From an uncultured Victivallales bacterium (GTDB lineage: Bacteria > Verrucomicrobiota > Kiritimatiellia > UBA8416 > CAYOBW01): a stretch of 64,000 nucleotides of DNA. The notes beneath the pieces are model-generated. The model saw only the letters and a list, made by a program, of their open reading frames with translations. It ran no database searches and was not told where the DNA came from. Below, piece after piece: positions 4,263-62,115 of the stretch (positions within the stretch are counted from its first letter, which is position 1; the number at the start of each line of letters is the position of its first letter). The translations under genes and the position numbers were made by a program. The stretch spans positions 1 through 64,000 of the forward strand of contig CAZJYI010000021.1 of the NCBI GenBank assembly GCA_964550025.1, read 5' to 3'.

Positions 4263-4294
4263 GAAGCGCCACCCGCCACCCGCCACGCCCCTCC

Positions 4295-9905: not shown

Positions 9906-11074
9906 CACGCTTCCTCCTGCGATGCCGTCGGAGGGGGCGGTTCCGGCGGCGGGGTGGTTACGGTCTGCAGGATCACGTCCTGGTTGGCGCGGAAGCCGGA
10001 GACCGTGTACCTGTCGGCCGCGTGTGCGCCGTACCAAACGCTTTCCAGGACGCCGACGTTGGTTCGGAACGCCTCCAGCAGGGACGCGCGGTCGTGAGCC
10101 CGGCGGTCGAGCTCGCGGCCGTAGTCGCGGTTGGACTTGTGCTTTGCGATTCGGACCAGACGGCACTGCCCGAGATGTGCCAGTGCCGCCAGGAACATGG
10201 CGCGAAGGGCCAGACGCCATTCTTCCCTTTCCATGAAGTCCATGGCCATTTCCATCCAGCGGTCGGCGGGAAGCTGGTCGGCCACCACGTCCTCGTCCGT
10301 GATGTCGGGCAGTGACGCGACCGGAACGGCTTTCACGGCGGGCCCCCGGCGGCGCGTCTTCCAGACGCGATACAGCACGAAGCCCAGGAGGATGCCGGCC
10401 AGAACGGCCGCCAGGACCCACATCGACCGCACCGAGACCAGACCACGCGAACGGTCGACGTCATGCTCCCTCCTGTACATCAGCCTGCGCATCCATCGCA
10501 GCAACTTCGTGAGCTGCTTGGCCACCCACCTGCCGAATTGGCGCAGTTTCTCCATGACGCGCTCGAGAAAACCGGCCAGGATTCCCGGTTCGGCGACCTC
10601 CTCTTCGCGCTCCCTGGGGGCGCGCCACGCGTAGCGCGGCTTGACGAGCGTCGTGTCGATGGCCCTGTCCAACTCCTGTGCCGTGATGCCGGCGCCTGCC
10701 GGCGCGGTTTCAGCTTCGGCCCGGCACGGGGTGGAGTGCAGGGGCAGCAGGGACAGGAGCAGGAGATACAGCGCTGCGGCAGAGACTCGTACTCCGGGCT
10801 GCGTCCGACCGTGTCCGAGAGGGGGGGGGCGACGCGATCGCGAAGTAGGACGGTGCTCCTGCGCCGTCCGGGGAGGCAGCACGGAGGCGGGTAGTGCGAG
10901 AGAATGGCACGATGTGCGGCTCCTCTCTCTCTTCGTCCTCCACGTTCTGCCACAAGGACGGCGCGGGAGCACCGTCCTACGGGGGAAGACTGCGCCCCGT
11001 GCCCTGTTCGGCCCCGGGTGTTCCGAAGACCGTGACGCATTCCCTCGCACCACTCTCACTGCTCCTCCTCCCAC
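9905..11074 (-). CDS. DUF4129-like membrane protein
   Basis: C-terminal KSNRDYGRELDRRAHDRASLLEAFRTNVGVLESVWYG matches the DUF4129 pattern (SRTxRE ... RYG). Has an internal TM. Start is uncertain: the first ~90 residues are R/P-rich and overlap the upstream gene by 19 nt. A GTG at VRVSAAALYLLLL is plausible. Confidence 0.6.
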   Translation of the reverse strand: MGGGAVRVVRGNASRSSEHPGPNRARGAVFPRRTVLPRRPCGRTWRTKRERSRTSCHSLALPASVLPPRTAQEHRPTSRSRRPPPLGHGRTQPGVRVSAAALYLLLLSLLPLHSTPCRAEAETAPAGAGITAQELDRAIDTTLVKPRYAWRAPREREEEVAEPGILAGFLERVMEKLRQFGRWVAKQLTKLLRWMRRLMYRREHDVDRSRGLVSVRSMWVLAAVLAGILLGFVLYRVWKTRRRGPAVKAVPVASLPDITDEDVVADQLPADRWMEMAMDFMEREEWRLALRAMFLAALAHLGQCRLVRIAKHKSNRDYGRELDRRAHDRASLLEAFRTNVGVLESVWYGAHAADRYTVSGFRANQDVILQTVTTPPPEPPPPTASQEEA

Positions 11075-16003: not shown

Positions 16004-17962
16004 TTGTGGGGTGTTGTCTTTTCTCCGTGCGTCCATGGAGGACGTGCTGTATTGTCCAAGAGCGGTTTTGCGCCAGTCGGCGGCAGCGCCGCAGCGAGGA
16101 GATGGCCGTTGCACAAGGAAGCATATTTCGTGGTGGGTTTCTTCGCTGCCCTGGCCCTGTTGACCTGGCTGTGGACCGTCTGGCTGCGCCGCGTCGTCCA
16201 GCGCAGAACCGAGGAACTGCAGAAGCACCAGAACCACCTCGACCAGCTCGTGGCGGAGCGGACCCGGGCGTACGAACGAGCGAACGCGGAATTGGAGCGC
16301 GAGATCGAAGAGCGCCGGCGGGCGCAGCGTGAGCTGGCCGCCCACCAGGATCGCCTCGAGGCCATGGTCGACGAACGCACGGCCGACCTGATCAGGGCCA
16401 ACCGGGAGCTGCGCAAGGAGTGCGAGCAAAGACGGCGCGTCGAGGAATCCCACCAGCACCTGTCCGCCGGGATCGAACAGGCGGTCGAAACGGTCCTCAT
16501 CATGGATGCGCAGGGACGTATTCAGTATGTCAATCCGGCCTTCGAGTCGACTTCGGGATACCGGCGGGACGAAGTCCTCGGGAAGAACCTCGATATTCTC
16601 CTGGATACCGACAACGCCGATGACGAGCTTCGCGAGATGTGGGAAACGGTTCGCGCGGGGGACGTGTGGAGCGGCGAGAGGACGCACCGCCGCAAGGACG
16701 GCAAGGCCTACCGCGAGGAAGTGACCCTGTGCCCCGTGAGGAATCCCCGCGGAGAAATCATCAGCTTCGTTTCCGTGCAGCACGACATCACGGAGAAGCT
16801 GCTGCTGCGGGACCAGCTCCGGCAGGCGCAGAAGATGGAGGCCGTGGGCAACCTGGCCGGCGGCGTGGCCCACGACTTCAACAACCTGTTGATGGTCATC
16901 GTCAACAGCGCGCGGTTCATCAAGGAGAGCGTCAAAGGCCGGCCGCAGGTGGAGGAAGACGTCGACGACATCATCGAGGCTTCGCGCAGCGCCGTCGATC
17001 TGACGCGCCAGCTCCTGGCCTTCTCGCGCAGGCAGCCGCTGTTGCCCAAAGTCTGCGACCTCAACAAGATCCTGGCTGACACCGAGACGATGATGAGGCG
17101 CACGATCGGCGAAGACATCGAGTTGATCATCCACCGCTCCGGGACGCCCGTTCCGGTCGAGGTCGACCCTGGGCAAATCAAGCAGGTGATTCTGAACCTG
17201 GCCGTCAACGCGCGCGCGGCCATGCCCGACGGCGGCGAGCTGCGGCTCGAGTTGAGCGAAGTCGGACTCACGGCCGAGGACCGCTGGCGGTTCGTCGAGG
17301 CGCCCGAGTTTTCCGCCGGCACGTACGCCCTGTTGACCGTCAGCGACAGTGGCGTCGGCATGGACGCGGAGACGCTCTCACACGTCTTTGAGCCCTTCTT
17401 CACAACCAAGGCCGCCGGTAAAGGAACGGGTCTGGGGCTTTCCACCGTCTACGGCATCGTGCGCCAGCACACCGGGCTCATCGCTGTTCGCAGCGAACCG
17501 GGCATCGGGACGGTTTTCGAGATCTGCCTGCCCGTCAGCAGCGCGCCAGAGGTGGCCGAGGCCGGTGCGGCTCCCGAGGGCGGCGTCGTGCGCGGCGACG
17601 AGACCATCCTGTTCGTCGAGGACGAGTTGGTTGTGCGACGGGTGGGCTGCCGCATGCTTCGCCGGCTCGGGTACCGCGTGCTGGAAGCCTCGAGCGGTGA
17701 GGAGGCCATGGCACTTGAGGCAACGTTCGACGAACCGATCCACCTGTTGCTGACCGACGTCATTATGCCCGGCATCGACGGCGGGACGCTGGCGGAACGC
17801 ATGCGCGGAAAACGCCCCGGTATCAAAGTGCTGTTCGCGTCCGGCTATTCGGGAACCTACCTCGACCGCCACGGCAAGGTCGGACAGGACGATCCCCTTC
17901 TCGCGAAACCGTTCCTCATCTCCGAAGTCTCGCAGATGCTGCGGCGATTGCTGGATGGGTGA
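16004..17962 (+). CDS. Hybrid sensor histidine kinase / response regulator (TM / coiled coil / PAS / HisKA / HATPase_c / REC)
   Basis: HDFNNLL H-box, HATPase N/G boxes, C-terminal [12 protein letters not shown]...[13 protein letters not shown] receiver. The reading frame has no ATG before the TM helix, so the start is TTG or GTG. Confidence 0.85.
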
Positions 17963-17968
17963 GGAGAA

Positions 17969-17997
17969 GTGGCGAGTGGCGGGTGGCGAGTGGCGCC
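17969..17997. repeat. Heptamer tandem repeat (GTGGCGA/GTGGCGG x4) immediately 3' of the kinase stop
   Basis: Read directly: gtggcgagtggcgggtggcgagtggcgcc. Confidence 0.6.
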
Positions 17998-18871: not shown

Positions 18872-20392
18872 ATGAATGGGTTGTACATGGAAACGTTCCT
18901 GACAGTGGCCCAGGCGGCCACGCGGACGAGAGGAGGGCTGCATCCTGCAGTGCCGATCCTGACGATCCTGCTCGGGATCATCATTTTCGTCATCATCATG
19001 ACCATGTTCAGGCGCTACAAGCGCTGCCCCTCGAACAAGATCCTGGTGATCTACGGTAAGACAGGAAGCGGAGCGGCGCGGTGCGTGCACGGTGGCGCCG
19101 CCTTCGTCTGGCCGCTGATTCAGGCCTACGACTACCTGGACCTCGAGCCGTTCGTCGTGCCGATCGACCTTAAGAGCGCACTCTCGATGGAGAACATCCG
19201 CGTCAGTGTGCCGACCACGGTGACAGCGGCCGTCTCCAACGAGCCCGGCATCATGCAGAACGCGGCGATTCGTTTGCTCGGGCTCTCGGGCAGTGACATT
19301 CACGGCCAGGCGCAGGACATCATCCTGGGCCAGATGCGTGCCGTGATCGCCACGATGCAGATCGAGGAGATCAACCGCGACCGCCAGGCGTTTCTCGGCA
19401 AGGTCAACGACGCCGTGTCCGGCGAGCTCGAGAAGATCGGTCTCGCACTGATCAATATCAATATCCGAGACATCGAGGACGAGTCCGGGTACATCGTGGC
19501 CCTGGGCCGGCGCGCCGCGGCCGAGGCCATCAACCAGGCCAACATCGACGTGGCCGAGCAGGAGAAGCTCGGGCAGACCGGTGTGGCGGTGCGTAGTCGC
19601 GACCAGCGCGTAGCCGTGGCCGCGGCGACGGCCGAAGCCGAGATCGGTGAGGCCACCGCGGACCGCGACAAGCGTAGTCAGTCCGCCGACCTGGACGCGC
19701 AGGCCGTTTCGGCCGAAACCGAGGCCGACGCCAAGAAGGCTTCCTACCGCGCCAACCAGCACGTGGCCGAGCAAGAGGCGCGCAACCGTTCCGAATCGGC
19801 GGCACGCCAGGCCGACGGCGCCATTCGCGTGGCGCAGGAAGTGGCGGAGAAGAAGGCGGAAGAAGCACGCGCGGAGCGCGAGACCGCCCGCCTGAACGCC
19901 GAGATCGTCGTGCCCGCGAACGCGGACCGCGAAAGGGTCGTTATCGCCGCCGACGCGAAACGCGAACAGGCCGTTCGCGTTGCGCAAGGTGAAGCCGAGG
20001 CCGTGCTGCTGAAGATGGAGGCCGAAGGTAAAGGTGTGCAGGCTATCCTCGACGGCAAGGCCGCCGGTTATCGCGGCCTGGTTTCGGCCTGCGCCACGGC
20101 CCCGCAGGCGGCCTCGCTCCTGCTCATCGAAAAGCTGCAGGAGATTGCCAAGGTCCAGGCCCAGGCGATCCAGGACCTGCCGATCGAGAAGGTCGTGGTC
20201 TGGGACGGCGGCAATGGCGGCGACGGGAGCGGCCTGTCCGGACTGGGCGGCCGCCTCATGGGCGCCCTGCCGCCCATGCACGAGCTCGCAAAGCAGGTCG
20301 GCCTCGAAATGCCGGACTACCTCGGCAAAATGAAAGACGAGGGGCCCCCGGCCGAGACCGGCGGTGGCGAGGAAGTGCTGAAGAAGACGTAG
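18872..20392 (+). CDS. Flotillin-family (SPFH/band 7) protein
   Basis: 506 aa. N-terminal TM, SPFH core, long Ala/Glu-rich coiled coil (AEAEIGEATADRDKR...). RBS ggaaggaggaagcgg precedes the ATG. Confidence 0.85.
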   Translation: MNGLYMETFLTVAQAATRTRGGLHPAVPILTILLGIIIFVIIMTMFRRYKRCPSNKILVIYGKTGSGAARCVHGGAAFVWPLIQAYDYLDLEPFVVPIDLKSALSMENIRVSVPTTVTAAVSNEPGIMQNAAIRLLGLSGSDIHGQAQDIILGQMRAVIATMQIEEINRDRQAFLGKVNDAVSGELEKIGLALININIRDIEDESGYIVALGRRAAAEAINQANIDVAEQEKLGQTGVAVRSRDQRVAVAAATAEAEIGEATADRDKRSQSADLDAQAVSAETEADAKKASYRANQHVAEQEARNRSESAARQADGAIRVAQEVAEKKAEEARAERETARLNAEIVVPANADRERVVIAADAKREQAVRVAQGEAEAVLLKMEAEGKGVQAILDGKAAGYRGLVSACATAPQAASLLLIEKLQEIAKVQAQAIQDLPIEKVVVWDGGNGGDGSGLSGLGGRLMGALPPMHELAKQVGLEMPDYLGKMKDEGPPAETGGGEEVLKKT

Positions 20393-20403
20393 AGAACAGC
20401 CGC

Positions 20404-20633
20404 AGAGTAACGCTGAATGCTGAAGTGGGAGCGATCCCACTTCGGCATTCTCGTCTTCTGGGGACCTCTCTGTCGAAATGTAGCCACGAGCGTGAGCGAG
20501 TGGACGGGTGACGGGGTTGGTTCAGCGGCATGTCCACTCGCTCACGCTCGTGGCTACTCTCGGTGCTGAAAGTCTGACTTCAGCATTCATCATTCGATAT
20601 TCAACATTCAACATTCGACATTTCCCTCCTCCC
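20404..20633 (+). repeat. Palindromic repeat element, copy 1, with nested 26-bp perfect inverted repeat and a terminator-like hairpin
   Basis: Arms AACGCTGAATGCTGAAGTG ... CTTCAGCATTCA..ATTCAACATTCGACATTTCCC. Hairpin gaatgctgaagtggga(gcga)tcccacttcggcattc at ~20415-20450 just after the flotillin stop. Perfect inverted repeat GTAGCCACGAGCGTGAGCGAGTGGAC at 20481-20506 and 20532-20557. Confidence 0.6.
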
Positions 20634-20673
20634 CCGTGCCTTTTTCATTGCCCCCGGCGCTCCTCTCTCCTAT

Positions 20674-21387
20674 ATGTACCGGCCACACGACGGGAGGAGG
20701 CGTACGTTGACGGACGGTTCACAACCATTCACGAGGACGGATTTTGATCGTAGCGCGTTGCCGGTGCTGCACCGGGGGCGGTGGGCCAACCCCGATCTGC
20801 TCAAGTTCCGCCAGAACGGCAGGATCTGGGTGATCAAGGACTTTGGCGCGCGTCCGTGGGTGGTGCGCAACACCATCGGCCGCTTCATGGTGCGCCGCGA
20901 GATGGCTGCGCTGCGCAGGCTCGAAGGCGTCGAGGGGATGCCGCGTTTGCCTTTCCGGCTCGATGCGTTTGCGCTCTGTTACCTCTTCGAGCTCGGCGCG
21001 GATCTCAAGCACGCCGACTCGGACTGGTTCAGCGAGGAGTACTTCGTACGCCTCGAAACGCTGGTGCGCGAGATGCACGCGCGGGGCGTGGTGCACCTCG
21101 ACCTGCGGCACGGCACCAACATCCTGATTACCGAGGACCGCGAGCCCGTGCTGATCGATTTCCAGTCCATGCTCTTCCTCGAACGGGTTCCACGATGCCT
21201 GCACGCACTGATGAAGGACGTTGACCTTTCCGGTGTCTACAAAGAGTGGTTCCGCAAGCTCCCCGGTACGTTGGGGGACGAACGCACGGCCGCGCTGGAG
21301 CGGATGCGGCGAAAACGGCGCTTGTGGATACTGAAGGGCTACTCCATATTTGGGGTGAAGAAGCGGACGGCTGAAGACGATATCTAG
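20674..21387 (+). CDS. Lipopolysaccharide kinase (Kdo/WaaP/RIO-like) family protein
   Basis: 237 aa. WVIKDF, then VVHLDLRHGTNILIT...PVLIDFQS catalytic/Mg-binding-like motifs of the LPS-kinase family. Confidence 0.55.
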   Translation: MYRPHDGRRRTLTDGSQPFTRTDFDRSALPVLHRGRWANPDLLKFRQNGRIWVIKDFGARPWVVRNTIGRFMVRREMAALRRLEGVEGMPRLPFRLDAFALCYLFELGADLKHADSDWFSEEYFVRLETLVREMHARGVVHLDLRHGTNILITEDREPVLIDFQSMLFLERVPRCLHALMKDVDLSGVYKEWFRKLPGTLGDERTAALERMRRKRRLWILKGYSIFGVKKRTAEDDI

Positions 21388-21439
21388 AGGGCATCCGAAA
21401 GGGTCCGGAGAGTAATCCCGCCACGATTCCCCCTAATAT

Positions 21440-21640
21440 GGGCGTAAATTCGAATCTCGAAATCTCCGCCGCTGGCGGAAAACAAATCCGAATCTCAAAA
21501 GGGGGGAAACATGGGAGAACGGGAAAGAAGACGCAGAATTCTCTCTCCGTTTCGGTCATTTGGGTTTTCAGATTTCGAATTTGTTTCGGATTTCGATATT
21601 CGGATTCCGGGTTTGTGCTACACACACCCCTCCGACCTAG
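21440..21640. repeat. AT-rich intergenic region with GATTTCGAA/AATCTCGAAATC-type short repeats
   Basis: aaattcgaatctcgaaatctcc ... cagatttcgaatttgtttcggatttcgatattcggattcc. Related to the AGATCTC/AGATTTC heptamer family at 31950 and 53139. Confidence 0.45.
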
Positions 21641-21653
21641 CGAGGTGTTCTCT

Positions 21654-22250
21654 ATGACTGACGGCGCAATGTCGCGTATACACGCTCTGTTCAATAGTCC
21701 TTCCCTCCGGCGCTTCCTCGTCAAGGGCAGGGGCGTCCTGACGCTTGCCATCGGCGCGTTGGTGATCGTCAACGCGAAGCCGGCCCTATTCTGGTGGGGA
21801 CTGGGCGTTTCGGCCTTTGGCGAGCTGGGCCAGCTTTGGTGTTTCGCTTCGCTCAAGAAGCAGAAGATCCTGGCAACCCGCGGACCGTACGTGCTGATGC
21901 GGAACCCCATGTACATCGCCCGGTACTTCCTCATTCTCGGTTGTCTCATCCTTCTGGGGAGCCCCGTGAACCCCTGGCTGGCCGCGGCATACACCGTGCT
22001 CTACTACTTCTACATGGCCAACAGGGTGAAACGCGAAGAGCGCAAGCTGGTGACGATCTTCGGTGAAGACTACGAGCGGTATTGCCGCGAGACCAACCGC
22101 TTTCTGCCCACGCTGCGCAACCGCAAATGGCGCGATGTCTGGTTCTTCAAGTGGGCCCTCCTTGTCGGCAACCACGGCGTATGGAACGCCGTCGGCCTCC
22201 TCGCCTTCTACGCCGCCGCGTACGTGTACCTGTTTGTGTACCTGGGGTGA
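21654..22250 (+). CDS. Isoprenylcysteine carboxyl methyltransferase (ICMT) / phospholipid methyltransferase family membrane protein
   Basis: Start MTDGAMSR by codon arithmetic. GPYVLMRNPMYIARYFLILG and RVKREERKLVTIFGEDYERY are typical of ICMT/PEMT-family enzymes. The track ORF begins earlier at 21438. Confidence 0.75.
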   Translation: MTDGAMSRIHALFNSPSLRRFLVKGRGVLTLAIGALVIVNAKPALFWWGLGVSAFGELGQLWCFASLKKQKILATRGPYVLMRNPMYIARYFLILGCLILLGSPVNPWLAAAYTVLYYFYMANRVKREERKLVTIFGEDYERYCRETNRFLPTLRNRKWRDVWFFKWALLVGNHGVWNAVGLLAFYAAAYVYLFVYLG

Positions 22251-22320
22251 GTACGAGTACGGCCCGGAACCTGACGCGCGCATGGATACGACGCTGGTGG
22301 CGGGGGAAGGAGAAACCGCA

Positions 22321-22436
22321 GAATGATGAACGCTGAATGATGAATGCTGAAGTGCGAGACCTGTCTCCGTGCGTGCCCTTCCCCTCTCACTTCGACATTG
22401 AGCATTCAGCGTTCAATATTCGACATTTCCCCTCCC
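22321..22436 (+). repeat. Palindromic repeat element, copy 2
   Basis: GAACGCTGAATGATGAATGCTGAAGTG...CACTTCGACATTGAGCATTCAGCGTTCAATATTCGACATTTCCCCTCCCC. Same arms and tail as copy 1, direct orientation. Confidence 0.6.
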
Positions 22437-22567
22437 CAAGAACGCCCGCCCGCCGTACGCACCGCTATCCCGCTGTTTCTTTCTCTTCCCTGTAACCCCC
22501 CGCTCCTCCCCTGCGTATACAGGGGCAGAGAGTACAACCGGGACCGAGCAAACCGAAGGAGGACGAC

Positions 22568-23521
22568 ATGAGGGGTATGAAGACACTGTTGGTGGGAGCG
22601 AGCATCGCGGCCGTGGTCACGCAGGTGATGGCGGGACAGTACAAGAGCTCGGATATCAGCAGCGACGCAAAGTGGGTGGTGCATGCGGATCTTGCTCAGC
22701 TTCGCGCCACGCAATTCGGCGGACACCTGTTGGAGAAGATGCGCTCGGAAGATGCGCAGAACAGGTTCGCGGCATTCCAGGCCATATTCAACTTCGATCC
22801 CCGTACCGATCTCGACGGTCTGACACTCTATGGCTACGGCAAGACCAAGCAGAAGGACGGCGTGTTGATCGCCAAGGGGCGTTTTGATGGTGAGCGGCTG
22901 GTGACCCTCGTAAAGGCCAACGAGACCTACGAACCCCATTCCCTCGGCGGTTTCACCGTCCATAGCTGGATCGACAAAAAAGAGGCCGCCAAGGCGGCGG
23001 TGCAGGGATGCGATCCGAAACGCTCCTACGGGTGTGTCTACGCCGACGGTGTCATCCTTATCAGCGACAGTTGCGAGAACGTCGGCAAGGCCATCGAGGT
23101 GCTTGCGGGAAGGGCGACCTCGCTGCAGCAGGAGAATCCACTGGGGATTCAGCCGCCCGCGGCCGGCTTTCTGACCGCCACGGCCATCACGTCGAAGATG
23201 AAGAACGTCGATCCCAAGGCGGCCATCCTGAAGCGTGCCAACGGCCTGTCGCTCAGCCTGGGCGAGGTGGACGGACTGATGTCCGGGACCTTTGTCCTGG
23301 ATGCCCATGACGCCAGGGCCGTCACCAACTTGAAGAAGATCGTGGACGGCATGATCGGGTTGGCGCTCTTGAACGAGGAAACAAACCCGGGTGCGGCGAA
23401 ACTGGCAGAGGCAGCCTCGGTGCAGTTGACCGGCACGCGCCTGCAGATAACGCTGGCCGCCCCCGTGGAAGACATGATTAGATGTGCAGAGGAAAAGGCG
23501 GCGCAAAAGAAGAGACCTTGA
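22568..23521 (+). CDS. Secreted hypothetical protein
   Basis: 317 aa, signal peptide MKTLLVGASIAAVVTQVMA, no recognisable motif. RBS aaggagga upstream. Confidence 0.5.
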   Translation: MRGMKTLLVGASIAAVVTQVMAGQYKSSDISSDAKWVVHADLAQLRATQFGGHLLEKMRSEDAQNRFAAFQAIFNFDPRTDLDGLTLYGYGKTKQKDGVLIAKGRFDGERLVTLVKANETYEPHSLGGFTVHSWIDKKEAAKAAVQGCDPKRSYGCVYADGVILISDSCENVGKAIEVLAGRATSLQQENPLGIQPPAAGFLTATAITSKMKNVDPKAAILKRANGLSLSLGEVDGLMSGTFVLDAHDARAVTNLKKIVDGMIGLALLNEETNPGAAKLAEAASVQLTGTRLQITLAAPVEDMIRCAEEKAAQKKRP

Positions 23522-26560: not shown

Positions 26561-26608
26561 CAGGAACGGGGCCTCGTACGTGGCAAATCCGCTCGCCCAC
26601 GCTCGCGG

Positions 26609-27949
26609 CTACGCGGTGGGCATCACCGGCAGGGCAAAGGAAAAGGTCGAGCCCTTTCCCGGTTGGCTCGTGACCTCCATGGATCCCCCGTGCTGCTTGA
26701 CGATCTTCTGGCAGCTCGCCAGCCCCATGCCCGTGCCGGCGTATTCCTGGCGCGTATGCAGGCGGCGGAATGGCTCGAGAACCTCCTGTGCGAACTTCGG
26801 TTCGAAGCCGATCCCATTGTCGCGCACCGAGAAGCGGTAGAACGCGTCGACCCGCTCGACCGATATGTCGACTTCCGGTATCGTTTCGCTCTTGCGGTAC
26901 TTGACGGCGTTGCCGATGAGATTCTGAAGGACGGTCACGAGCAGCGTTGCGTTTCCTGAGACGGTGGGCAGTTCATTGCGCCGGACGACGGCGCCGGTCT
27001 TCTGCAGCACATGGTCGAGGTTCTGCAAGGCCTCGTCGAGCACGGCGTTCATGTCCGCGTCCGCGAAGGCCTTTTGCTCCGCGTCGAGCAGCGAGTAGGC
27101 GAGCAGGTCGCCGAGGAGGCGCTCCATGCGTCTCGCCGCCCGGATCGTGCGGTTCATGCAGTCTTCAGTCCTGCCCTGGTCCTCGTAGCCCTTGGGCAGG
27201 AGCTCACGCATCACGTTCAGGTAGCCGGTGATTGAGCTCAACGGCTGCCTGAGGTCGTGGGACGCGGCGCGCGAGAAGTGCTCGAGGTCCCGGTTGGATT
27301 CCCGCAGCGCCTCTGCCGTGACTTCGAGCTCGGCCTGGCGGCGAAGCGCGAGACGGCGCATCCGGAACTCGTTGAATGCCGTGCGCTCCTGCGATATCGC
27401 CACCGCGATCAACGCGGGGCAAATGGCTACCGGGTTGGAAAACAGCGCGAGCTCTTCGGCGGTTGGCGCGCAGTAGAGCAGGAGGAACGCGATGGTGATG
27501 GCCAACGGAACGACCAATACGACCCAGAGGACGCGCCGCGCGCCGTAGGCAAAGACGAAGGCGGCCACCATGCTGATCAGGATCGCGCTGGTGGTGCCGT
27601 AGGGATAGGTTGGCAGGTCTGCCGGCCGCACGTAGAACATGACGCAGGTGAACCCGCATATCTGGGCCAGGACCGCGGTGATCTGAACGGTATGCGCGGG
27701 GATGATCCACCCGGGGCGCCTGCGGAATACCGTGTAAGAGGAAACGAGGAAGAAGCCCGTGCAGAGTAACCCGATCGCTCGAAACGCGGTGGCCAGAGGC
27801 GGCGCCTTCAGGATGCGCGTGTCCTGGAAGAGCATGTGGACCAGGACGGTAAAAGCGATCAAGGCGAAGATGCGTCCGCGCCGAAGCGTCTTGTCCCGGA
27901 GCTCTCCCAGGTACTCCGCGCGCACTTCCTGCGAATCACTATGCTCCAT
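26609..27949 (-). CDS. Sensor histidine kinase, polytopic N-terminal domain
   Basis: Six TM helices, H-box HFSRAASHDLRQPL, HATPase_c N/G1/G2 boxes (GIGFEP...GTGMGLA). Confidence 0.85.
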   Translation of the reverse strand: MEHSDSQEVRAEYLGELRDKTLRRGRIFALIAFTVLVHMLFQDTRILKAPPLATAFRAIGLLCTGFFLVSSYTVFRRRPGWIIPAHTVQITAVLAQICGFTCVMFYVRPADLPTYPYGTTSAILISMVAAFVFAYGARRVLWVVLVVPLAITIAFLLLYCAPTAEELALFSNPVAICPALIAVAISQERTAFNEFRMRRLALRRQAELEVTAEALRESNRDLEHFSRAASHDLRQPLSSITGYLNVMRELLPKGYEDQGRTEDCMNRTIRAARRMERLLGDLLAYSLLDAEQKAFADADMNAVLDEALQNLDHVLQKTGAVVRRNELPTVSGNATLLVTVLQNLIGNAVKYRKSETIPEVDISVERVDAFYRFSVRDNGIGFEPKFAQEVLEPFRRLHTRQEYAGTGMGLASCQKIVKQHGGSMEVTSQPGKGSTFSFALPVMPTA

Positions 27950-31949: not shown

Positions 31950-32127
31950 GTCTCAGATTGCGAATCTCAGATCTCAGATCTCAAATCTCAAATCTCAGAT
32001 TTCAGATCTCAGATTTCAGACCTCAGATTTCAGACCTCGGACCTCAGATTTCGGGTCTCACATTTTACATCCCAGATGTTGCGTACGGGAAATGGTGGCG
32101 GATCTGAGATCTGAGATTTGAGATATG
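31950..32127. repeat. Heptamer microsatellite (TCTCAGA/TTTCAGA/TCTCAAA) of ~16 tandem units plus a 4-unit inverted copy
   Basis: Read directly: tctcagattgcgaatctcagatctcagatctcaaatctcaaatctcagatttcagatctcagatttcagacctcagatttcag... Then cggatctgagatctgagatttgagat at ~32100-32127. Confidence 0.75.
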
Positions 32128-32144
32128 TGATCCCGGATCCCCCA

Positions 32145-33068
32145 TCACTCGCCCCTCAGTGCCTCCACAACGGTCAGCGTGTTCTCGCGCATCATGCCGA
32201 GGTACGTTTCGCCGGCGCTTCCGTCCTCACCCATGGCGTCGGAGTACAGTTCGCCGCCGATCTTGACGCCCGCTTCCCCCGCGATCTGGCGGATCATCTT
32301 GGGGTTGACGGAGGTTTCCACGAAAATGGCGGGTACATTGAAATCCTTGATGGACGCGACCACCGTGCGCCGTCTCTGCGGCGTCATCCCCCCGCCGATC
32401 TCCGAACCGGTCGACCAGCCGACGGGGCTGCGCACTTTGAAACCGTAGCGGGCGGCAAAGTAGTTGAATGCGTCGTGGCTTGTGACGAGCACACGTTTCG
32501 CCTTGGGAATCGTGCTGACCTGCTTCTCGATCCAGGCGTCGAGGGCGCGGAGCTGTTGCAGGTAGAGGTCGGCGCGGGCCTGGTACGAGGCGGCCCCCTC
32601 CGCGTCAATCTTCATCAGCGCGCCCAGAATGTTGTTTACGTAGAGCGCGGCGTTGCGCGGATCAAACCATGCATGCGGGTCCTTGACCATCTGCCCTTCG
32701 TACTGGAGGTCCAACGGCTGAATCCCGTCCGTGCAGGTCACCAGGGGCTTGTTGCCGTTGTCCTTCGCCAGCGAAGCCATCCAGTTCTTACCTTCGAGAT
32801 GCAATCCGTTCTGAAGACAAAGGTCCGCCGTCTCCACGAGACGGCTGTCTCCCGGCACGGGCTGGTAGACGTGAGGGTTCACGCCCGCCCCCAGGATGCA
32901 GATAACCTCGCAACGGTCTCCTGCTACCTGCCGCGCCAGGTCGGCGGTCTGGGTTGTCGAGCAGACAACGCGCGGTTTCCTGGTCGCTTCTGCGGCGCCT
33001 GCTTCCGTCGCACAGAGGAGTGCGAGGGCCGCTGCCAGACCCGTGAACAGTATCCTGCTACCTGTCAT
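32145..33068 (-). CDS. znuA: Metal ABC transporter substrate-binding protein (ZnuA/TroA/MntC, cluster A-I)
   Basis: Start MTGSRILFTGLAAALALLCATEA (signal peptide). HVYQPVPGD, VTSHDAFNYF, metal-ligand His/Asp positions. Confidence 0.85.
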   Translation of the reverse strand: MTGSRILFTGLAAALALLCATEAGAAEATRKPRVVCSTTQTADLARQVAGDRCEVICILGAGVNPHVYQPVPGDSRLVETADLCLQNGLHLEGKNWMASLAKDNGNKPLVTCTDGIQPLDLQYEGQMVKDPHAWFDPRNAALYVNNILGALMKIDAEGAASYQARADLYLQQLRALDAWIEKQVSTIPKAKRVLVTSHDAFNYFAARYGFKVRSPVGWSTGSEIGGGMTPQRRRTVVASIKDFNVPAIFVETSVNPKMIRQIAGEAGVKIGGELYSDAMGEDGSAGETYLGMMRENTLTVVEALRGE

Positions 33069-41945: not shown

Positions 41946-41986
41946 TGCGAACAGAACGTCCTCCTGTTGGCGCGATAGTCGTTACT

Positions 41987-42030
41987 GCGAGTCGCGAGTC
42001 GCGAGTCGCGCGTCGGGCGTCGCGCGTCGG
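41987..42030. repeat. Short tandem heptamer repeat (CGAGTCG x3, then CGCGTCGGG x2)
   Basis: tgcgagtcgcgagtcgcgagtcgcgcgtcgggcgtcgcgcgtcggg. A related GAGTCGC/TAGTCGC triplet lies at ~7490-7515. Confidence 0.55.
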
Positions 42031-42087
42031 GTGAGAGGGACGTCTCCGGCCTGACTTCAGACCTTCGCGGCTGAGGGCGGCACACGT

Positions 42088-44528: not shown

Positions 44529-44603
44529 CACACACTCTCCCGTACCGATTGCCGGTCGCTGATAACCGATCACTGATCACTGATGACTGATCACTCCTCT
44601 TCA

Positions 44604-47507: not shown

Positions 47508-47878
47508 GAGCGGGAGGAGTGGGATTATGATTGGGGAGGGGAATGGGAATTCTCCCCGATCGTAATCGCACTCTCTCGCGCCCTGATCGCCTCGGCGTGG
47601 TCTCTTGGGACGATTGGTGAGGGGGAGGAGTGGGATTATGATTGGGGAGGGGAATGGGAATCCTCCCCGATCGTAATCGCACTCTCTCGCGCCCTGATCG
47701 CCTCGGCGTGGTCCTCTGGGGACGATTGGTGAGGGGGAGGAGTGGGATTATGATTGGGGAGGGGAATGGCAGTTTTCCCCGATCGTAATCGCACTCTCTC
47801 GCGCCCTGATCGCCTCGGCGTGGTCTCTTGGGACGATTGGTGAGCGGGAGGAGTGGGATTCTGATTGGGGAGGGGAAC
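47508..47878. repeat. Tandem repeat, ~111-bp unit x ~3.3 copies (periods 111, 113, 110)
   Basis: Unit GGGAGGAGTGGGATTATGATTGGGGAGGGGAATGGGAATTCTCCCCGATCGTAATCGCACTCTCTCGCGCCCTGATCGCCTCGGCGTGGTCTCTTGGGACGATTGGTGAG. Contains an internal hairpin GGGGAG...CTCCCC. No spacers. The track ORFs inside it are short and interrupted. Confidence 0.8.
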
Positions 47879-50874: not shown

Positions 50875-52077
50875 TGGTTTCATGAAGAGGAGCAACGCGG
50901 CCATGCCGAGGAACAGCAATCCCGTCAGGCACTTGGCGACGGCGACCTCGCGGCGACTCCAGGTCAGGAGCTCCTGCAGCGTCAGGCCGGTGTACGAGAG
51001 CCCCACGACGGCAACGAGCGGCAGGATGAACATCGCGTTGTACAGGGCGAGGCATGCCAGGACACGCGCCCCGGCGTGGCCCGCCTTAACGACAAGGACC
51101 AGCGTTGGCACGTAGACCTGCCCCGTGCACACGCTCTCCAGGGCCGTGACGATCGCGCCCGCCGCCAGCGCACCCACCAGCGCGTAACGCGCGTTCATTC
51201 CGTCACGTATCGTGCGCTTGATCCTGCGCTTGAGTCCATCCGGCAGGCGAAGGGTCACTTCCTCCTCGCGGTGGCTGCGATGGTAGCGCCACGCGTCGCG
51301 GAAGGAGAGGGCGGCAAGTACCAGGAGAAGGGCAAGGAGGGTTATCTCGAATACGCGTTGCAGCGCACCGAAACCCTCCAGCGAGTGGAACGCGTGCAGC
51401 AGACCGAAGCCGATCGCGGTGTAGGTTGCGAACGACGCTGCGCAGAATGCCAGCCCGTTGGCCAGCATCCGCCGTCGACCGACCTTGAGGACGCCAAGGA
51501 CGCTGACCAGGAACACCAGCGTTGAAATGGCGCACGGGTTGATCCCGTCGACGAGCCCCGCCCCCGCCACGCCCAGCCATGTGAAGCGCCTGATGCGCTC
51601 CTCGAGGAGCTGTTCGTCGGAGAGCCTGGCCCTGGACGTGTCACCCGTCGGTGCCCGCGGCGCGGTTCCGGGGTTCAGTCTCTCTCCAACACGCCTGTCC
51701 ACCTGTTCCAGGACCCCGTCGCGAATGGCCGGCCACCCCGCGAAGGGATGGGTCCCGTCCACGAACATGATGACGGATTTGCTGACGTTGAACTGCAGTT
51801 TCTCCTGGAGCCGCACGAGCGCCAGGTAGTTCGTCTTCACCCGGGTGTCGTAGCGATTCAGGGCGTAGAAGCCCTCGTAGCGTTCCCGCAACGGGATGAT
51901 GACCTGCTGTTCGACTTTCGTGCACGCGGGACAGCCGGGCTCGTAGAAGTAGTCAACCTGAACAGGGACGATCTCAGCGTGCTCGGGGGCGGTGTTGGTT
52001 GCGGCGACACCATCCGCGGCGCACCACAGCCCCAGGAGGACTGCTGCCGATCGCACGAGTGGTGTCGGTATCCTCAC
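50872..52077 (-). CDS. Thioredoxin-like domain fused to DsbD/CcdA-type transmembrane domain
   Basis: Signal peptide. YFYEPGCPACTKVEQ thioredoxin CxxC. GINPCAISTLVFLVSVL and CTGQVYVPTL DsbD_2 cysteines. Confidence 0.7.
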   Translation of the reverse strand: MRIPTPLVRSAAVLLGLWCAADGVAATNTAPEHAEIVPVQVDYFYEPGCPACTKVEQQVIIPLRERYEGFYALNRYDTRVKTNYLALVRLQEKLQFNVSKSVIMFVDGTHPFAGWPAIRDGVLEQVDRRVGERLNPGTAPRAPTGDTSRARLSDEQLLEERIRRFTWLGVAGAGLVDGINPCAISTLVFLVSVLGVLKVGRRRMLANGLAFCAASFATYTAIGFGLLHAFHSLEGFGALQRVFEITLLALLLVLAALSFRDAWRYHRSHREEEVTLRLPDGLKRRIKRTIRDGMNARYALVGALAAGAIVTALESVCTGQVYVPTLVLVVKAGHAGARVLACLALYNAMFILPLVAVVGLSYTGLTLQELLTWSRREVAVAKCLTGLLFLGMAALLLFMKP

Positions 52078-52124
52078 ACCGATAACCGATCACTGATAAC
52101 TGATGACTGATCACTGATGACTGA

Positions 52125-53120
52125 CTACCGGCTCCTGACCGTACGTCCGCTGTTCGCGCTTTCCCGGATCATGTCCATGAGTTTCGCGAATCGCAGGCCG
52201 ACTTCGGCGGGGCAGGGGTTGTCCAGGCGTCCCTCGCGCACCTTGACGAACTGTTCCCATACACCGCGCGATCGGGCGTATTTGACAGCGTGAAACTCCG
52301 GGTCCCCATCGGTCTTGATGAGGAGGCGCTCTCCCCATATCCCGGTTTCGAGGACCCCCTTGTCGCCAAAGATGTGGACCGTCGAAGCGCACTGGATGGA
52401 ATCCCCCGCGCCAGCCATGGAGAAGAGAACGCCGTTGCGGAAGCGCCCGCTCACCGATGATGCGATCTCGACCGGTGTGCTGCGGTTGTCGAACATGCCG
52501 GTGACCTCGACAACGTCCTCGCCGACAAGGTCGACGACAGTGTTGATCATGTGGGACCCGGTATCGAACAGAAAGCCGCCTCCCGAGAGTTCGGGGTCCT
52601 GCCGCCATGTCCCGGTGGTGGCTTGTTTCCAGCGCTGGTGCGCGTGGGCCGACACGCAGGTCACCTTGCCGATCGTTCCTTTGGCGATGAGCTCCTTTGC
52701 CTTTTGAACCGCGGGGGAGAGGCTGCCCGGGAAGGCGACGACCAGAAGCCGTTCCGCCTTGTCGCGGGCCTTGATGAGGCGGCGCGCTTCCGATGCATTC
52801 ACCACCATCGGCTTCTCCAGGCAGATGTCCATGCCGTGTTTCAGGCAGTCGCGCGCGTTCTCGTAGTGGAACTTGTGGGGTGTACAGATCAGGGCCGCCT
52901 CCGGACTCTCAACGGCCTTCACCAGGTCCTTGACCGAATCGAAGAACGGCGGGCAGCGGCGGCCCTGCTCCACGAACATCTCCACGACGGCCTCCCGGGA
53001 CCGCTCGGAAACCTCAACGAAACCGACGATATCCGTGGTGCGGCGTTGCAGGAGCATGGTGCGGATGTGGTGCCGCGCCATGCCGCCCGTGCCGACGACG
53101 ATGGTTCTGATGCGGGGCAT
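52125..53120 (-). CDS. Gfo/Idh/MocA family oxidoreductase
   Basis: IVVGTGGMARHH Rossmann N-terminus. EKP motif ICLEKPMV. Confidence 0.85.
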   Translation of the reverse strand: MPRIRTIVVGTGGMARHHIRTMLLQRRTTDIVGFVEVSERSREAVVEMFVEQGRRCPPFFDSVKDLVKAVESPEAALICTPHKFHYENARDCLKHGMDICLEKPMVVNASEARRLIKARDKAERLLVVAFPGSLSPAVQKAKELIAKGTIGKVTCVSAHAHQRWKQATTGTWRQDPELSGGGFLFDTGSHMINTVVDLVGEDVVEVTGMFDNRSTPVEIASSVSGRFRNGVLFSMAGAGDSIQCASTVHIFGDKGVLETGIWGERLLIKTDGDPEFHAVKYARSRGVWEQFVKVREGRLDNPCPAEVGLRFAKLMDMIRESANSGRTVRSR

Positions 53121-53138
53121 GTTCTTGCTCCTTGTGCC

Positions 53139-53244
53139 AATTCCAAATCCCAGATCTCAGATTTCAGATTTGGGATCTCAGAGACCAAAGGCCAGAGACC
53201 AGTATGTCCAAGTTCTCCCTCTGAAATCTGAGATCTGAAATCTG
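53139..53244. repeat. AGATCTC/AGATTTC heptamer-type inverted repeat element
   Basis: aaatcccagatctcagatttcagatttgggatctcagagacc ... ctgaaatctgagatctgaaatctg. Confidence 0.6.
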
Positions 53245-53260
53245 CCATTCGCCCTCTTCC

Positions 53261-56627: not shown

Positions 56628-57114
56628 AGTCCCTCCGGTACATGACACGATTCGAGCCGGACACGCAGTATGGCCCGTCAAGCTGCCCGGGTCAACAGCG
56701 TTTGCGAGGTTGCGTGGGTTGCGGGACTTTGCTTTGGACCGCGGCTGTGCGTCTATCGTAGTACGCTGCGATACAGCGACCAACCGCATCTCAAGCGCGC
56801 CACGGTCTCATCCGCGAATGATGACGGCGACACGCGCTGCGCCTGCTACGGCGTGGCACACGATAGCGGTGGATGATACCGAGATTCTCCCCTCGTTCCC
56901 CACTACCGGCCTCGCTCCCACCCCTACTCCAGCCCGTACTCTCTCCCCCGAACTCTTGGGGTAGTCATTTGGAGAGTAGGGGTTGGAGTAGGGGATGCCG
57001 TCCCCGGTTGAAAGGCTCCAAGTTGCAGATGTGCTCTGGAATCGGGGTGGCGGGCTTGCACCGGCCCCTCGTGATCGGATAGGGTCTCACACAACCTTAT
57101 GCCGGAGGATCACG

Positions 57115-60582: not shown

Positions 60583-60840
60583 GTGTTTGTTCCTCTTCAA
60601 TGTCCCCACCGGCCTTGTGCCGGTGGAACGAAAGACCGATATACAGCGGTAATACCGCCGGGCATCCTGAGCCCGGATGGAGCAAGAGACGAGTGAAATC
60701 TCTCTTTGCTCCTGGCGGGCTCCATGACTCCTGTGAGTTTGTGTTGTCGGCTGTTCGCGTTGTCTGTCGCCGGCTGGAAGCCGGCACCACTCGCCACCGG
60801 CTGGAAGCCGGCGCTACTTGTCACCGGCTGGAAGCCGGCG

Positions 60841-62115
60841 TTACACGATCTCGCACTTCTTGGCGTCGAAGCGGGCGGTCTTGCCTTCGCGCATGGACTT
60901 CATCGCCATCTGGAGGATGGTCTGTGTCCGGAAGGCGAGGTCCATCGGGCTCCAGGTGTTCTTGTCGCGCTTCCTGGCGCACTCGATCAGGTTCTTCCAG
61001 TGTTCCGTGTTGCTCTCACCGCGCTCGATCGGGATGCGCTGCGGGGCCTTGGCGCCCTTCTGCCGGATGGGCATGAAGAAGATCTCCTTGTTCTTCTCGA
61101 TGGAGAGGCTGCCCTCCCAGCCGCGGATGACGGGGCAGCGCTGGCCCGCGCCGCGGCGGTCCGTCGTCTGGTAATCGTTGGCCTGCGTTCCCAGGACGGA
61201 GATCGTGACGTTTTCCGGGTACTGCGCGATCAGGTTGAACGTGTCGGGCACCTCGCGCAGCTTGTAGGAATAGCGATGAATGCCCCCGACCGCCACGACC
61301 TCGGAAGGGAAACCCACGCCGAGGATATCCACCACCTGTGTCAGGCAGTGCGGGTAAAGGTCGGTTACAGGACCGCCCGCGTAGTCTTCAAAGAGGCGCC
61401 AGCGGAAATAGCGGTCCACGCTGAATTCGCGCTTCGGTGCATCCCCCAGGAACGCCTCCCAGTTGAGATCCTTGCCGGGCTTGGCCTTGGCGTCGTCGAC
61501 GCGCATGCCGCGCTCTCCCCAGTCGCCCACGCGGAAAAAGCCTGTTTCGCCGAACAGCGGTTGTCCAATCAGCCCCTCCTGCACCAGTTTCTTCATCTGG
61601 TGCCAGACACCGTCGCTCATGGCCTGTGTACCGACCTGGAAGACGCAGTCCGACTTGGCCACAACGTCTGCCAGTTTCTTGGTCAGTTCGAACTGGCGCC
61701 AGTGGGTTACCGGCTTTTCGCAGTAGACGTGTTTGCCTGCGTTGACTGCGTCAATAGCCGCGTAGCCGTGATGATGATCCGGCGTGGCGATGCAGACGAT
61801 ATCTACGTCCTTGTCCTGCAACAGTTCGCGGTGGTCGTCGTAGCCGCGCGCGATTCCGAATTGCTTCTTCCTGCCCTCCATGCGGGGGCGATAGGTGTCA
61901 CAGACCGCCACGAAATCGAGCGGCATTTTCTCGCGGTCGCGCAGGTGGCGGATCATGTTCATGTGCCCGCCCGCGCGCCCGCCGGCGCCGATGAAGCCGA
62001 TGCCGATGCGGTCGTTGGCGCCCTGCGCCTTCGCGATGTTGAAGGCCGAAACGGCCGCCGCGCTCGTGGCCGTGGCCTGGATGAAGCTCCGTCGAGACAT
62101 GTTCTGCTTCTTCAT
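60841..62115 (-). CDS. Gfo/Idh/MocA family oxidoreductase with twin-arginine (Tat) signal
   Basis: MKKQNMSRRSFIQATATSAAAVSAFNIAKA Tat motif. GIGFIGAGGRA Rossmann. CEKP. Confidence 0.85.
   Translation of the reverse strand: MKKQNMSRRSFIQATATSAAAVSAFNIAKAQGANDRIGIGFIGAGGRAGGHMNMIRHLRDREKMPLDFVAVCDTYRPRMEGRKKQFGIARGYDDHRELLQDKDVDIVCIATPDHHHGYAAIDAVNAGKHVYCEKPVTHWRQFELTKKLADVVAKSDCVFQVGTQAMSDGVWHQMKKLVQEGLIGQPLFGETGFFRVGDWGERGMRVDDAKAKPGKDLNWEAFLGDAPKREFSVDRYFRWRLFEDYAGGPVTDLYPHCLTQVVDILGVGFPSEVVAVGGIHRYSYKLREVPDTFNLIAQYPENVTISVLGTQANDYQTTDRRGAGQRCPVIRGWEGSLSIEKNKEIFFMPIRQKGAKAPQRIPIERGESNTEHWKNLIECARKRDKNTWSPMDLAFRTQTILQMAMKSMREGKTARFDAKKCEIV

Follow-up and report, generated by a model that had tools for sequence, protein, structure and literature searches.

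Two palindromic elements that bracket a kinase-like gene and a methyltransferase gene in an uncultured bacterium are members of a population of intergenic hairpins whose stems consist of tandem heptanucleotide units (heptads). They lie in a stretch of 64,000 nucleotides (nt) (NCBI GenBank assembly GCA_964550025.1, contig CAZJYI010000021.1), here called the window, and are designated copy 1, located 5' of the kinase gene, and copy 2, located 3' of the methyltransferase gene. The heptad elements arose inside existing spacers of an old, syntenic string of genes and delimit no mobile unit. Copy 1 has since been split by a segment of ~130 nt containing a REPIN, a doublet of repetitive extragenic palindromic (REP) units. 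In the best overall explanation, to which we assign a probability of about 0.5, the heptad hairpins act in the messenger RNA. The host is classified by its sequence as a member of the Planctomycetes-Verrucomicrobia-Chlamydiae (PVC) group with a GC content of 64%; the closest named FTHFS proteins, at 75-76% identity, are those of metagenome-assembled genomes (MAGs) of Kiritimatiellia, Lentisphaerae and Verrucomicrobia.

The arms and the tail common to both copies were described in an earlier sequence-only reading of this DNA, and motif matches confirmed the description. Overlooked were the 7-nt periodicity of the arms and a third heptad element between the two genes. The sequence GAATGCTGAAGT occurs exactly at 20415 (+), 20577 (-) and 22342 (+) of the window and with one mismatch at 20439 (-), and exact matches to the 13-mer TTCGACATTTCCC are found in the 64 kb only at 20614 and 22419. 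With at most one mismatch, GAATGNTGAATG has eight matches compared with 0.62 expected; all eight lie inside copies 1 and 2, and this number was reached in 0 of 100 shuffles. Tandem Repeats Finder identified period 7 at 20579-20622 (6.3 copies), at 22321-22351 (4.4 copies) and at eight further sites. In both copies (GAATGNT)n forms the 5' arm and (ANCATTC)n the 3' arm of an imperfect stem, and TTCAAYATTCGACATTTCCC forms the 3' end of both. Folding each copy, a check proposed in the sequence-only reading, yielded z scores relative to shuffles of -8.2 for copy 1 and -5.8 for copy 2.

Copy 2 (22303-22436, + strand) is predicted to form one long hairpin of -57.7 kcal/mol, composed of a G-rich closing segment (22303-22316), five GAATGNT units, a 25-nt loop, six ANCATTC units and a C-rich tail. 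Its arms, 22321-22358 and 22384-22421, are a 38-nt inverted repeat with 82% complementarity, and they match even where the units deviate, as the variant GAACGCT is mirrored by AGCGTTC on the opposite side. Copy 1 had been interpreted as a single palindrome with an insert, and its arm AACGCTGAATGCTGAAGT (20409-20426) is complementary to ACTTCAGCATTCATCATT (20577-20594). Instead, it folds as three successive hairpins: hairpin A, the nested repeat and a 7-bp mini-hairpin. Hairpin A (20409-20450, + strand) begins 17 nt past the stop codon of the Band_7 gene and is made up of two GAATGNT-type units and GAAGTGGGA, a GCGA loop and then TCCCACTTCGGCATTC. The left arm closes on 20435-20450, and the resulting 16-bp stem (20415-20450) has a predicted energy of -31 kcal/mol (z -6.6). 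The right-arm array (20575-20626, + strand) contains about seven ANCATTC units, the first of which pairs with 20565-20571 to form the mini-hairpin; 3' of it, about seven ANCATTC units are single-stranded in the fold. The array runs into a C-rich tail, TTTCCCTCCTCCCCC (20621-20635, + strand).

That the genes are older than the elements is revealed by relatives with 85-89% protein identity. The gene order from Band_7 through the kinase, the PEMT-like methyltransferase, an unknown gene and an extracytoplasmic function (ECF) sigma factor to Na/Pi is kept in loci L131-L134, in which the kinase is 85% identical. The spacer between the kinase and methyltransferase genes measures 266 nt in the window, 12 nt in L131 and 25 nt in L134. 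The spacer after the methyltransferase gene, which contains copy 2 in the window, is free of heptads in L131 and contains unrelated 27-nt mini-hairpins in L134. After Band_7, L131 carries a hairpin composed of 8-nt units, (AACAGATC)2 / (GATCTGTT)3, with the same left boundary, AGAACAG, as in the window; L134, whose upstream gene is divergent at this site, has no hairpin. Because synteny is kept while the spacers are short or different, the genes are old residents and their spacers were filled later by the elements. The hairpin after Band_7 persists in both lineages despite different units. Conservation of promoter-proximal sequence starts only 3' of each copy, at about 20640 and about 22480. 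Two blocks common to L131 and L134, both outside the repeats, were delimited on the + strand: one 5' of the kinase gene (20640-20706), a putative promoter or 5' untranslated region, and one 5' of the gene that follows the methyltransferase gene (22480-22567).

The heptad elements are not confined to this neighbourhood. A periodicity scan of the window detected 11 arrays of period 7 with a total of 443 nt, compared with 0-2 arrays at each other period from 4 to 12. Ten of the 11 lie wholly or largely outside crude gene calls, seven of them wholly. About six unit families can be distinguished, and the longest inverted repeats of the whole window are heptad hairpins. The GAATGNT family forms the hairpins of copies 1 and 2, and the CGAAATC family that of the third, weaker element, in which inverted arrays of the CGAAATC / GATTTCG type occupy 21436-21622 (+ strand) between the kinase and methyltransferase genes. 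The ATCTCAG family (ATCTCAG / CTGAGAT) forms two hairpins on the - strand, at 31951-32146 and at 53136-53252; the latter has a z score of -6.6, and its sense strand is predicted to fold more stably than the antisense strand by 20 kcal/mol. Single arrays are represented by the TNACTGA family at 44559-44599, in the fhs-folD spacer, and at 52077-52128, where the array fills a 47-nt spacer (both on the - strand), by the GCGAGTC family at 41983-42033, and by the GGTGGCG family at 17966-17997 and, as the reverse complement, at 4264-4294. Both TNACTGA arrays are reversed relative to the downstream gene, so that the sense strand reads TCAGTNA. At the same fhs-folD site a relative with 89% FTHFS identity (L257) has three of these TCAGTNA units compared with five to six in the window. 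It is partly established that the arrays at a given site lengthen and shorten by 7-nt units and that the arms of a hairpin stay complementary.

Other repeats were encountered in the spacers of this genome. A 111-nt tandem repeat (47508-47877; 3.3 copies, 95% identical) fills the 521-nt spacer between a PRK-like gene and TauE, a spacer of only 87 nt in L257. Three tandem 27-nt mini-hairpins with the unit CACCGGCTGGAAGCCGGCGCTACT are located at 60765-60844, and the same unit occurs in L134 (1830-1990) 3' of the methyltransferase gene, where the window has copy 2. A 23-nt inverted repeat, CCCCTACTCCAGCCCGTACTCTC and its complement (56921-56994; 91% complementary), lies just 5' of a rhamnogalacturonan-lyase-like gene. 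A gene for a PAS histidine kinase/receiver protein (16004-17997), directly 3' of which the window has a GGTGGCG array, has no counterpart in the syntenic region of L131. Independently assembled contigs of the same population terminate at 20480, 20539, 20582, 20607, 21577, 22429 and 22437, all within the REPIN or heptad arrays, and such repeats therefore fragment metagenome assemblies.

Both the arms and the 26-bp repeat nested in copy 1 recur in other genomes. A scan with GAATGNTGAATGNTGAA, in which one genome per species was included, retrieved at least 120 loci (L011-L130). The loci listed come from Bacteroidota, Acidobacteriota, Chloroflexota, Verrucomicrobiota, Lentisphaerota, Planctomycetota, Armatimonadota, Nitrospira and others, with GC contents of 25-70%, and the matches listed include several cultivated carriers (Mucilaginibacter conchicola, Terrimonas ferruginea, Bacteroides timonensis and an Oscillochloris strain). 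The idea that the similarity of copies 1 and 2 is a local duplication and nothing else thus had to be abandoned, since the elements are part of a period-7 class that extends over the window and is also found in many phyla. The arms follow a fixed order: among the loci listed, (GAATGNT)n-loop-(ANCATTC)n occurs 35 times and the reverse three times (binomial 7e-8), and of 38 inverted heptad pairs detected by a generic scan, 33 begin with the G/T-rich arm. Exceptions are the ATCTCAG and CGAAATC hairpins of the window. In gene calls derived from open reading frame (ORF) length and GC content at third codon positions (GC3), 17 hairpins have a gene called on each side, and 13 of these are located between co-directional genes, with median gaps of about 6 nt past the upstream stop codon and about 20 nt ahead of the next start codon. 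In the literature searched, no literal sequence match to the GAATGNT arrays was found.

An action of the hairpins at the RNA level was examined with 17 hairpins between co-directional genes, five from the window, one from L131 and 11 from other genomes. In 13 of the 17 the fold of the sense strand is more stable than that of the antisense strand (sign test, ~0.05 two-sided), and G-U pairs in the predicted stems number 57 for sense and 27 for antisense. This asymmetry is suggestive, being the signature expected under selection on RNA structure. From the location of the hairpins and their folding we infer that they function as intercistronic RNA hairpins similar to REP elements. According to this model, they would act in the mRNA right after the upstream stop codon without covering the ribosome-binding region of the gene that follows. 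As is the case for REP elements within operons, they could present a barrier to 3'-exonucleases or provide a site of pausing, termination or processing, and the expression of the neighbouring genes would thereby be uncoupled. The unit family and the 20-nt tail that copies 1 and 2 have in common would result from local copying between adjacent spacers and not from transposition. A more specific interaction is conceivable at copy 1, where CCTCCTCCC in the tail is the exact complement of the Shine-Dalgarno (SD) sequence GGGAGGAGG of the kinase gene (20692-20700) and may pair with it; pyrimidine tracts are also found in relatives without heptads.

The sequence-only reading had considered the two copies as structured regulatory RNAs acting as terminator and attenuator. 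RNA structure in these spacers is plausible, but a canonical terminator is lacking and the logic of an attenuator could not be demonstrated. Several observations weigh against an action in the mRNA. A consensus scan uncovered no canonical or U-tract terminator at copy 1 or copy 2; hairpin A is followed by TCGTCTTCT, with four T in eight bases. The pairing of the tail with the SD sequence is present in the minimum-energy fold, but with a z score of -1.4 it is no better than in shuffles, and the fold of the third element (21436-21622) is not significant either (z -1.45). In copy 2 the antisense strand is the more stable one, by 6 kcal/mol. The sample of 17 hairpins is small and the gene calls, among them those of the foreign loci, are crude, and the excess of G-U pairs could partly come from strand-biased C-to-T mutation. 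Single GAATGNT arrays display no preferred orientation to the genes (17 vs 20), which fits a role at the DNA level or no role at all. Finally, the hairpin is missing from two of the three spacers in close relatives, and the elements are therefore dispensable.

The last of these points also belongs to the most serious competing view, which is possible, though we consider it rather unlikely, namely that the arrays and inverted pairs are functionless by-products of replication slippage and template switching, tolerated in expandable spacers. It accounts for the absence of the elements from two of three orthologous spacers of the 85% relatives, the variation of the unit sequences between sites and of the unit number between lineages, the indifference of single arrays to the orientation of genes and the presence of unrelated 111-nt and 27-nt tandem repeats in spacers of the same genome. 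It does not account for an enrichment limited to period 7, for an arm order that is strongly polar across phyla, for a hairpin after Band_7 that outlasts the turnover of its sequence, or for the G-U excess on the sense strand. Arguing against a fast neutral slippage is the constancy of the repeats within populations. The window belongs to a repeatedly assembled metagenome contig of 108 kb. Over 20000-23000, ten independent assemblies of this population have 99-100% identity (100% in seven), and in three assemblies of the relative two spacers are identical; no polymorphism in repeat number was seen in these 10 + 3 assemblies. The same constancy at the assembly level, together with the location of the arrays outside ORFs and 5' of the conserved promoter-proximal blocks, makes it very improbable that they are contingency repeats which switch envelope-modifying genes by phase variation through their unit number, even though simple-sequence repeats lie beside genes related to lipopolysaccharide (LPS) and the unit number at one site differs between lineages.

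A role at the DNA level, in which a protein reads stacked 7-bp sites of successive heptads as an insulator, nucleoid or operator element, is suggested by the contiguity of the 7-bp units, the occurrence of both direct and inverted arrangements, the importance of arm order in inverted pairs and the indifference of single arrays to gene orientation. Units of the TNACTGA family moreover read GATCACT, which agrees in six of seven positions with WATCACW, the heptad motif read by the omega repressor of inc18 plasmids. We nevertheless hold such a role to be improbable, for the six or more unrelated unit families within 64 kb would require many proteins, loops of 25-100 nt lie between the arms, the arrays follow stop codons and are not found at promoters, and the G-U asymmetry between sense and antisense favours RNA. 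No candidate binding protein was identified, although no ribbon-helix-helix partner was sought. Contradicted by the data is the main proposal of the sequence-only reading, namely that copies 1 and 2 are the ends of a cassette, recombination-prone or flanked by miniature inverted-repeat transposable elements (MITEs), that transported the kinase and methyltransferase genes. Two envelope-related genes do lie between two similar palindromes in direct order, but in relatives the pair and its neighbours are syntenic with short or unrelated intergenic sequence in place of the elements, a finding that the reading itself had named as one that would speak against a cassette. A third, different element lies between the two genes, elements of the same class are scattered across the whole window, and around the pair neither terminal inverted repeats nor target duplications are present; a direct repeat is found solely at the borders of the insert of copy 1. 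We regard the cassette as highly improbable.

Beyond the preferred action in the mRNA, the heptad hairpins might constitute a distinct cross-phylum class of intercistronic RNA (or DNA) structure in which the 7-nt register is read or generated by a conserved factor or mechanism. This is a tentative extension, and we consider it doubtful. It would explain the sole enrichment of period 7, the recurrence of GAATGNT and TNACTGA units from Bacteroidota to the PVC group at 25-70% GC, and the leading position of the G/T-rich arm. The direction of transcription cannot set the arm order, because the order reads identically from either DNA strand. The most interesting leads are offered by the polarity of the arm order and by the presence of the same units in different phyla.

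What breaks up the right-arm array of copy 1 (20451-20587, no strand assigned) is a segment of a different nature. An insert had been correctly noticed in copy 1, but its size is ~125-138 nt rather than 115 nt. An imperfect direct repeat of 13 nt flanks it, CACTTCGGCATTC (20437-20449) on one side and GACTTCAGCATTC (20575-20587) on the other, and deletion of the insert in silico results in one unbroken NNCATTC heptad register. The flanks and the loop of the insert matched no other locus compared, which leaves a mobility of the insert as a unit unsupported. Within the segment lies the nested inverted repeat, whose 26-nt arms (20480-20505 and 20532-20557) are 100% complementary, as had been reported, and are separated by 26 nt, not 25. 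No shuffle of the window yielded a repeat like it. The repeat (20480-20557, no strand assigned) consists of two REP units of 25/26 nt, GTAGCCACGAGCGTGAGCGAGTGGA(C), in inverted orientation around a 26-nt loop; the predicted fold has an energy of -61 kcal/mol and a z score of -9.0. Both arms are identical to the 25-nt family consensus GTAGCCACGAGCGTGAGCGAGTGGA, which starts with GTAG.

A 22-mer taken from the arm had matches in at least 120 metagenome contigs. Among the matches listed (644 kb) there were 101 inverted doublets, most with loops of 6 or 10 nt, and 70 single units; 24 of the 101 doublets overlap crude ORF calls. Where both sides of a pair had changed, pairing was kept in 26 cases and lost in two. 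The contigs with this family are Opitutaceae-like, with a lactonase 81-83% identical to proteins of Opitutaceae MAGs. In one of them, L212, the ORF at 533-1150 matches NF047646, the NCBIfam model of REP-associated tyrosine transposases (RAYTs), at E 9e-15 (54.8 bits, where the equivalog cut-off is 80), and E. coli TnpA-REP (PDB 4ER8) at E 4e-5, in an alignment that includes the HUH and Y motifs; it did not match Pfam Y1_Tnp. REP units are located in L212 at 344-408, 498-523 and 1084-1139, that is, two REPINs and one single unit around the RAYT gene. Because its units flank this RAYT-like ORF, the nested repeat is well supported as a REPIN, an ordinary GTAG-type REP doublet of a dispersed family; it is neither unique nor regulatory in origin. 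The 64 kb of the window contain one intact doublet of the family and one relic, a degenerate single unit with three mismatches (26588-26612, - strand), and no RAYT gene. A search for the REPIN sequence in plasmids and viral contigs revealed no copies, and the REP arm had no literal sequence match in the literature searched. To our knowledge, REPs or REPINs of this kind have not been described previously in this lineage.

A second REP-like doublet of the GTAG...CTAC type, with arms at 10845-10869 and 10956-10980 that are 86 nt apart, has a GGACGG/CCGTCC stem of its own in each 25-nt arm and no copy in any other locus compared. In the Opitutaceae-like contigs (L137-L256, e.g. L157, L152, L162, L238 and L143), about 30 REPINs are embedded in a composite element of ~200 nt with conserved hairpins on both sides, ggggcaagcccc...catcggtgccaatcttccccc...REPIN...aagccgaagccagcttcggggtatcggaccca. 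The composite ends exactly 47 nt 5' of the ATG of unrelated genes, among them those for a lactonase, MoeA, a major facilitator superfamily (MFS) transporter and an ABC permease, and has the appearance of a portable 5' leader.

The two genes between the copies had been labeled approximately correctly as genes of an LPS-kinase-like protein and an ICMT-type methyltransferase. The first (20707-21387, + strand) has a TTG start codon and encodes a small kinase-like protein of 226 residues that is RIO1-like and has a weak, partial match to the Kdo kinase KdkA; the second (21654-22250, + strand) encodes a methyltransferase of the PEMT/ICMT family with 198 residues and a weak match to the lipid A methyltransferase LmtA. 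In a relative with 50% identity (L135), both genes are part of a lipid A/Kdo cluster, in which the kinase gene follows LpxK and the methyltransferase gene adjoins KdsB and WaaA. This context and the weak KdkA and LmtA matches support a presumptive LPS-related role of both genes. Searches for known RNAs returned nothing of relevance: at the gathering score, Rfam 15 had no match in the window, the REPIN loci or the heptad-hairpin loci of other phyla, a permissive Rfam search yielded only sub-threshold, generic miRNA-like hairpin matches, and a tRNA and tmRNA scan was negative.

Comparison with known systems places the elements more precisely. The omega repressor of inc18 plasmids reads successive WATCACW heptads, direct or inverted, with orientation-dependent binding. 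The window arrays resemble its operators in their contiguous 7-bp units and their direct or inverted arrangement, and differ from them in that omega sites are located at plasmid promoters, contain one unit type and have no loop between arms. Correia elements are MITEs that, like the heptad hairpins, are short, palindromic, intergenic and repeated; unlike MITEs, the heptad hairpins have no fixed ends, target duplication or constant sequence, and their stems are periodic and of variable length. Paired palindromes of the heptad type should not be taken in genome annotation as the boundaries of mobile elements.

REPINs, doublets of REP units of the kind mobilised by RAYTs, are the counterpart of the nested repeat alone, for which E. 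coli REP with TnpA-REP (PDB 4ER8) and the REPINs of Pseudomonas are the comparators. Common features are a 25-nt GTAG unit, hairpin-forming inverted doublets besides single units, an extragenic location, maintained pairing and the RAYT in L212. The nested repeat differs in that its single unit nearly lacks an internal palindrome, that one intact doublet and one relic without a RAYT are all that the 64 kb contain, and that the family whose consensus its arms reproduce exactly is abundant in contigs of another, Opitutaceae-like lineage than that of the host. The nested element extends the REP/RAYT systems to Verrucomicrobiota-like genomes. A functional parallel to the heptad hairpins is provided by REP elements and bacterial interspersed mosaic elements (BIMEs), which stabilise upstream mRNA within operons, e.g. 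malE-malF in E. coli. The heptad hairpins likewise are stable stem-loops between co-directional genes just past the stop codon; in contrast to REP/BIME, their stems are composed of tandem 7-nt units rather than of a dispersed unique palindrome, no transposase is implied, and the role proposed here would be theirs only by analogy.

The closest relatives of the window arrays are the heptanucleotide tandem repeats, which have been recorded in cyanobacteria for decades as intergenic short tandemly repeated repetitive (STRR) sequences and were subsequently noted in other bacteria as well. The window arrays belong to this intergenic class, which is described but has no accepted function or origin. 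They agree with long simple sequence repeats (LSSR), STRR and TAACTGA repeats in their 7-nt units, their almost exclusively intergenic location, their large number per genome and their patchy taxonomic distribution, in the shorter, array-free spacers of close relatives, in differences by steps of 7 nt, and in the TNACTGA arrays of the window. As summarised in PMC4679880, heptanucleotides are the most abundant long simple repeats in most genomes (Mrazek et al. 2007). TAACTGA repeats occur in Beggiatoaceae, Cyanobacteria and Bacteroidetes, with relatives that lack them and with indels in 7-nt steps, and one indirect repeat was found among 170 sets (MacGregor 2015, PMC4679880). The window arrays, by contrast, are often inverted pairs that form imperfect stems of 30-45 bp, comprise several unit families in a PVC host with 64% GC, have a polar arm order, and include TNACTGA arrays that are reversed relative to the downstream gene. 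These features add new handles to an old class of repeats: arrays in the form of long hairpins with a fixed arm order, located between co-directional genes beside the upstream stop codon, a G-U signature in the sense transcript and a hairpin that persists at an orthologous site while its units are replaced. The cultivated carriers could open the heptad hairpins to bench work.

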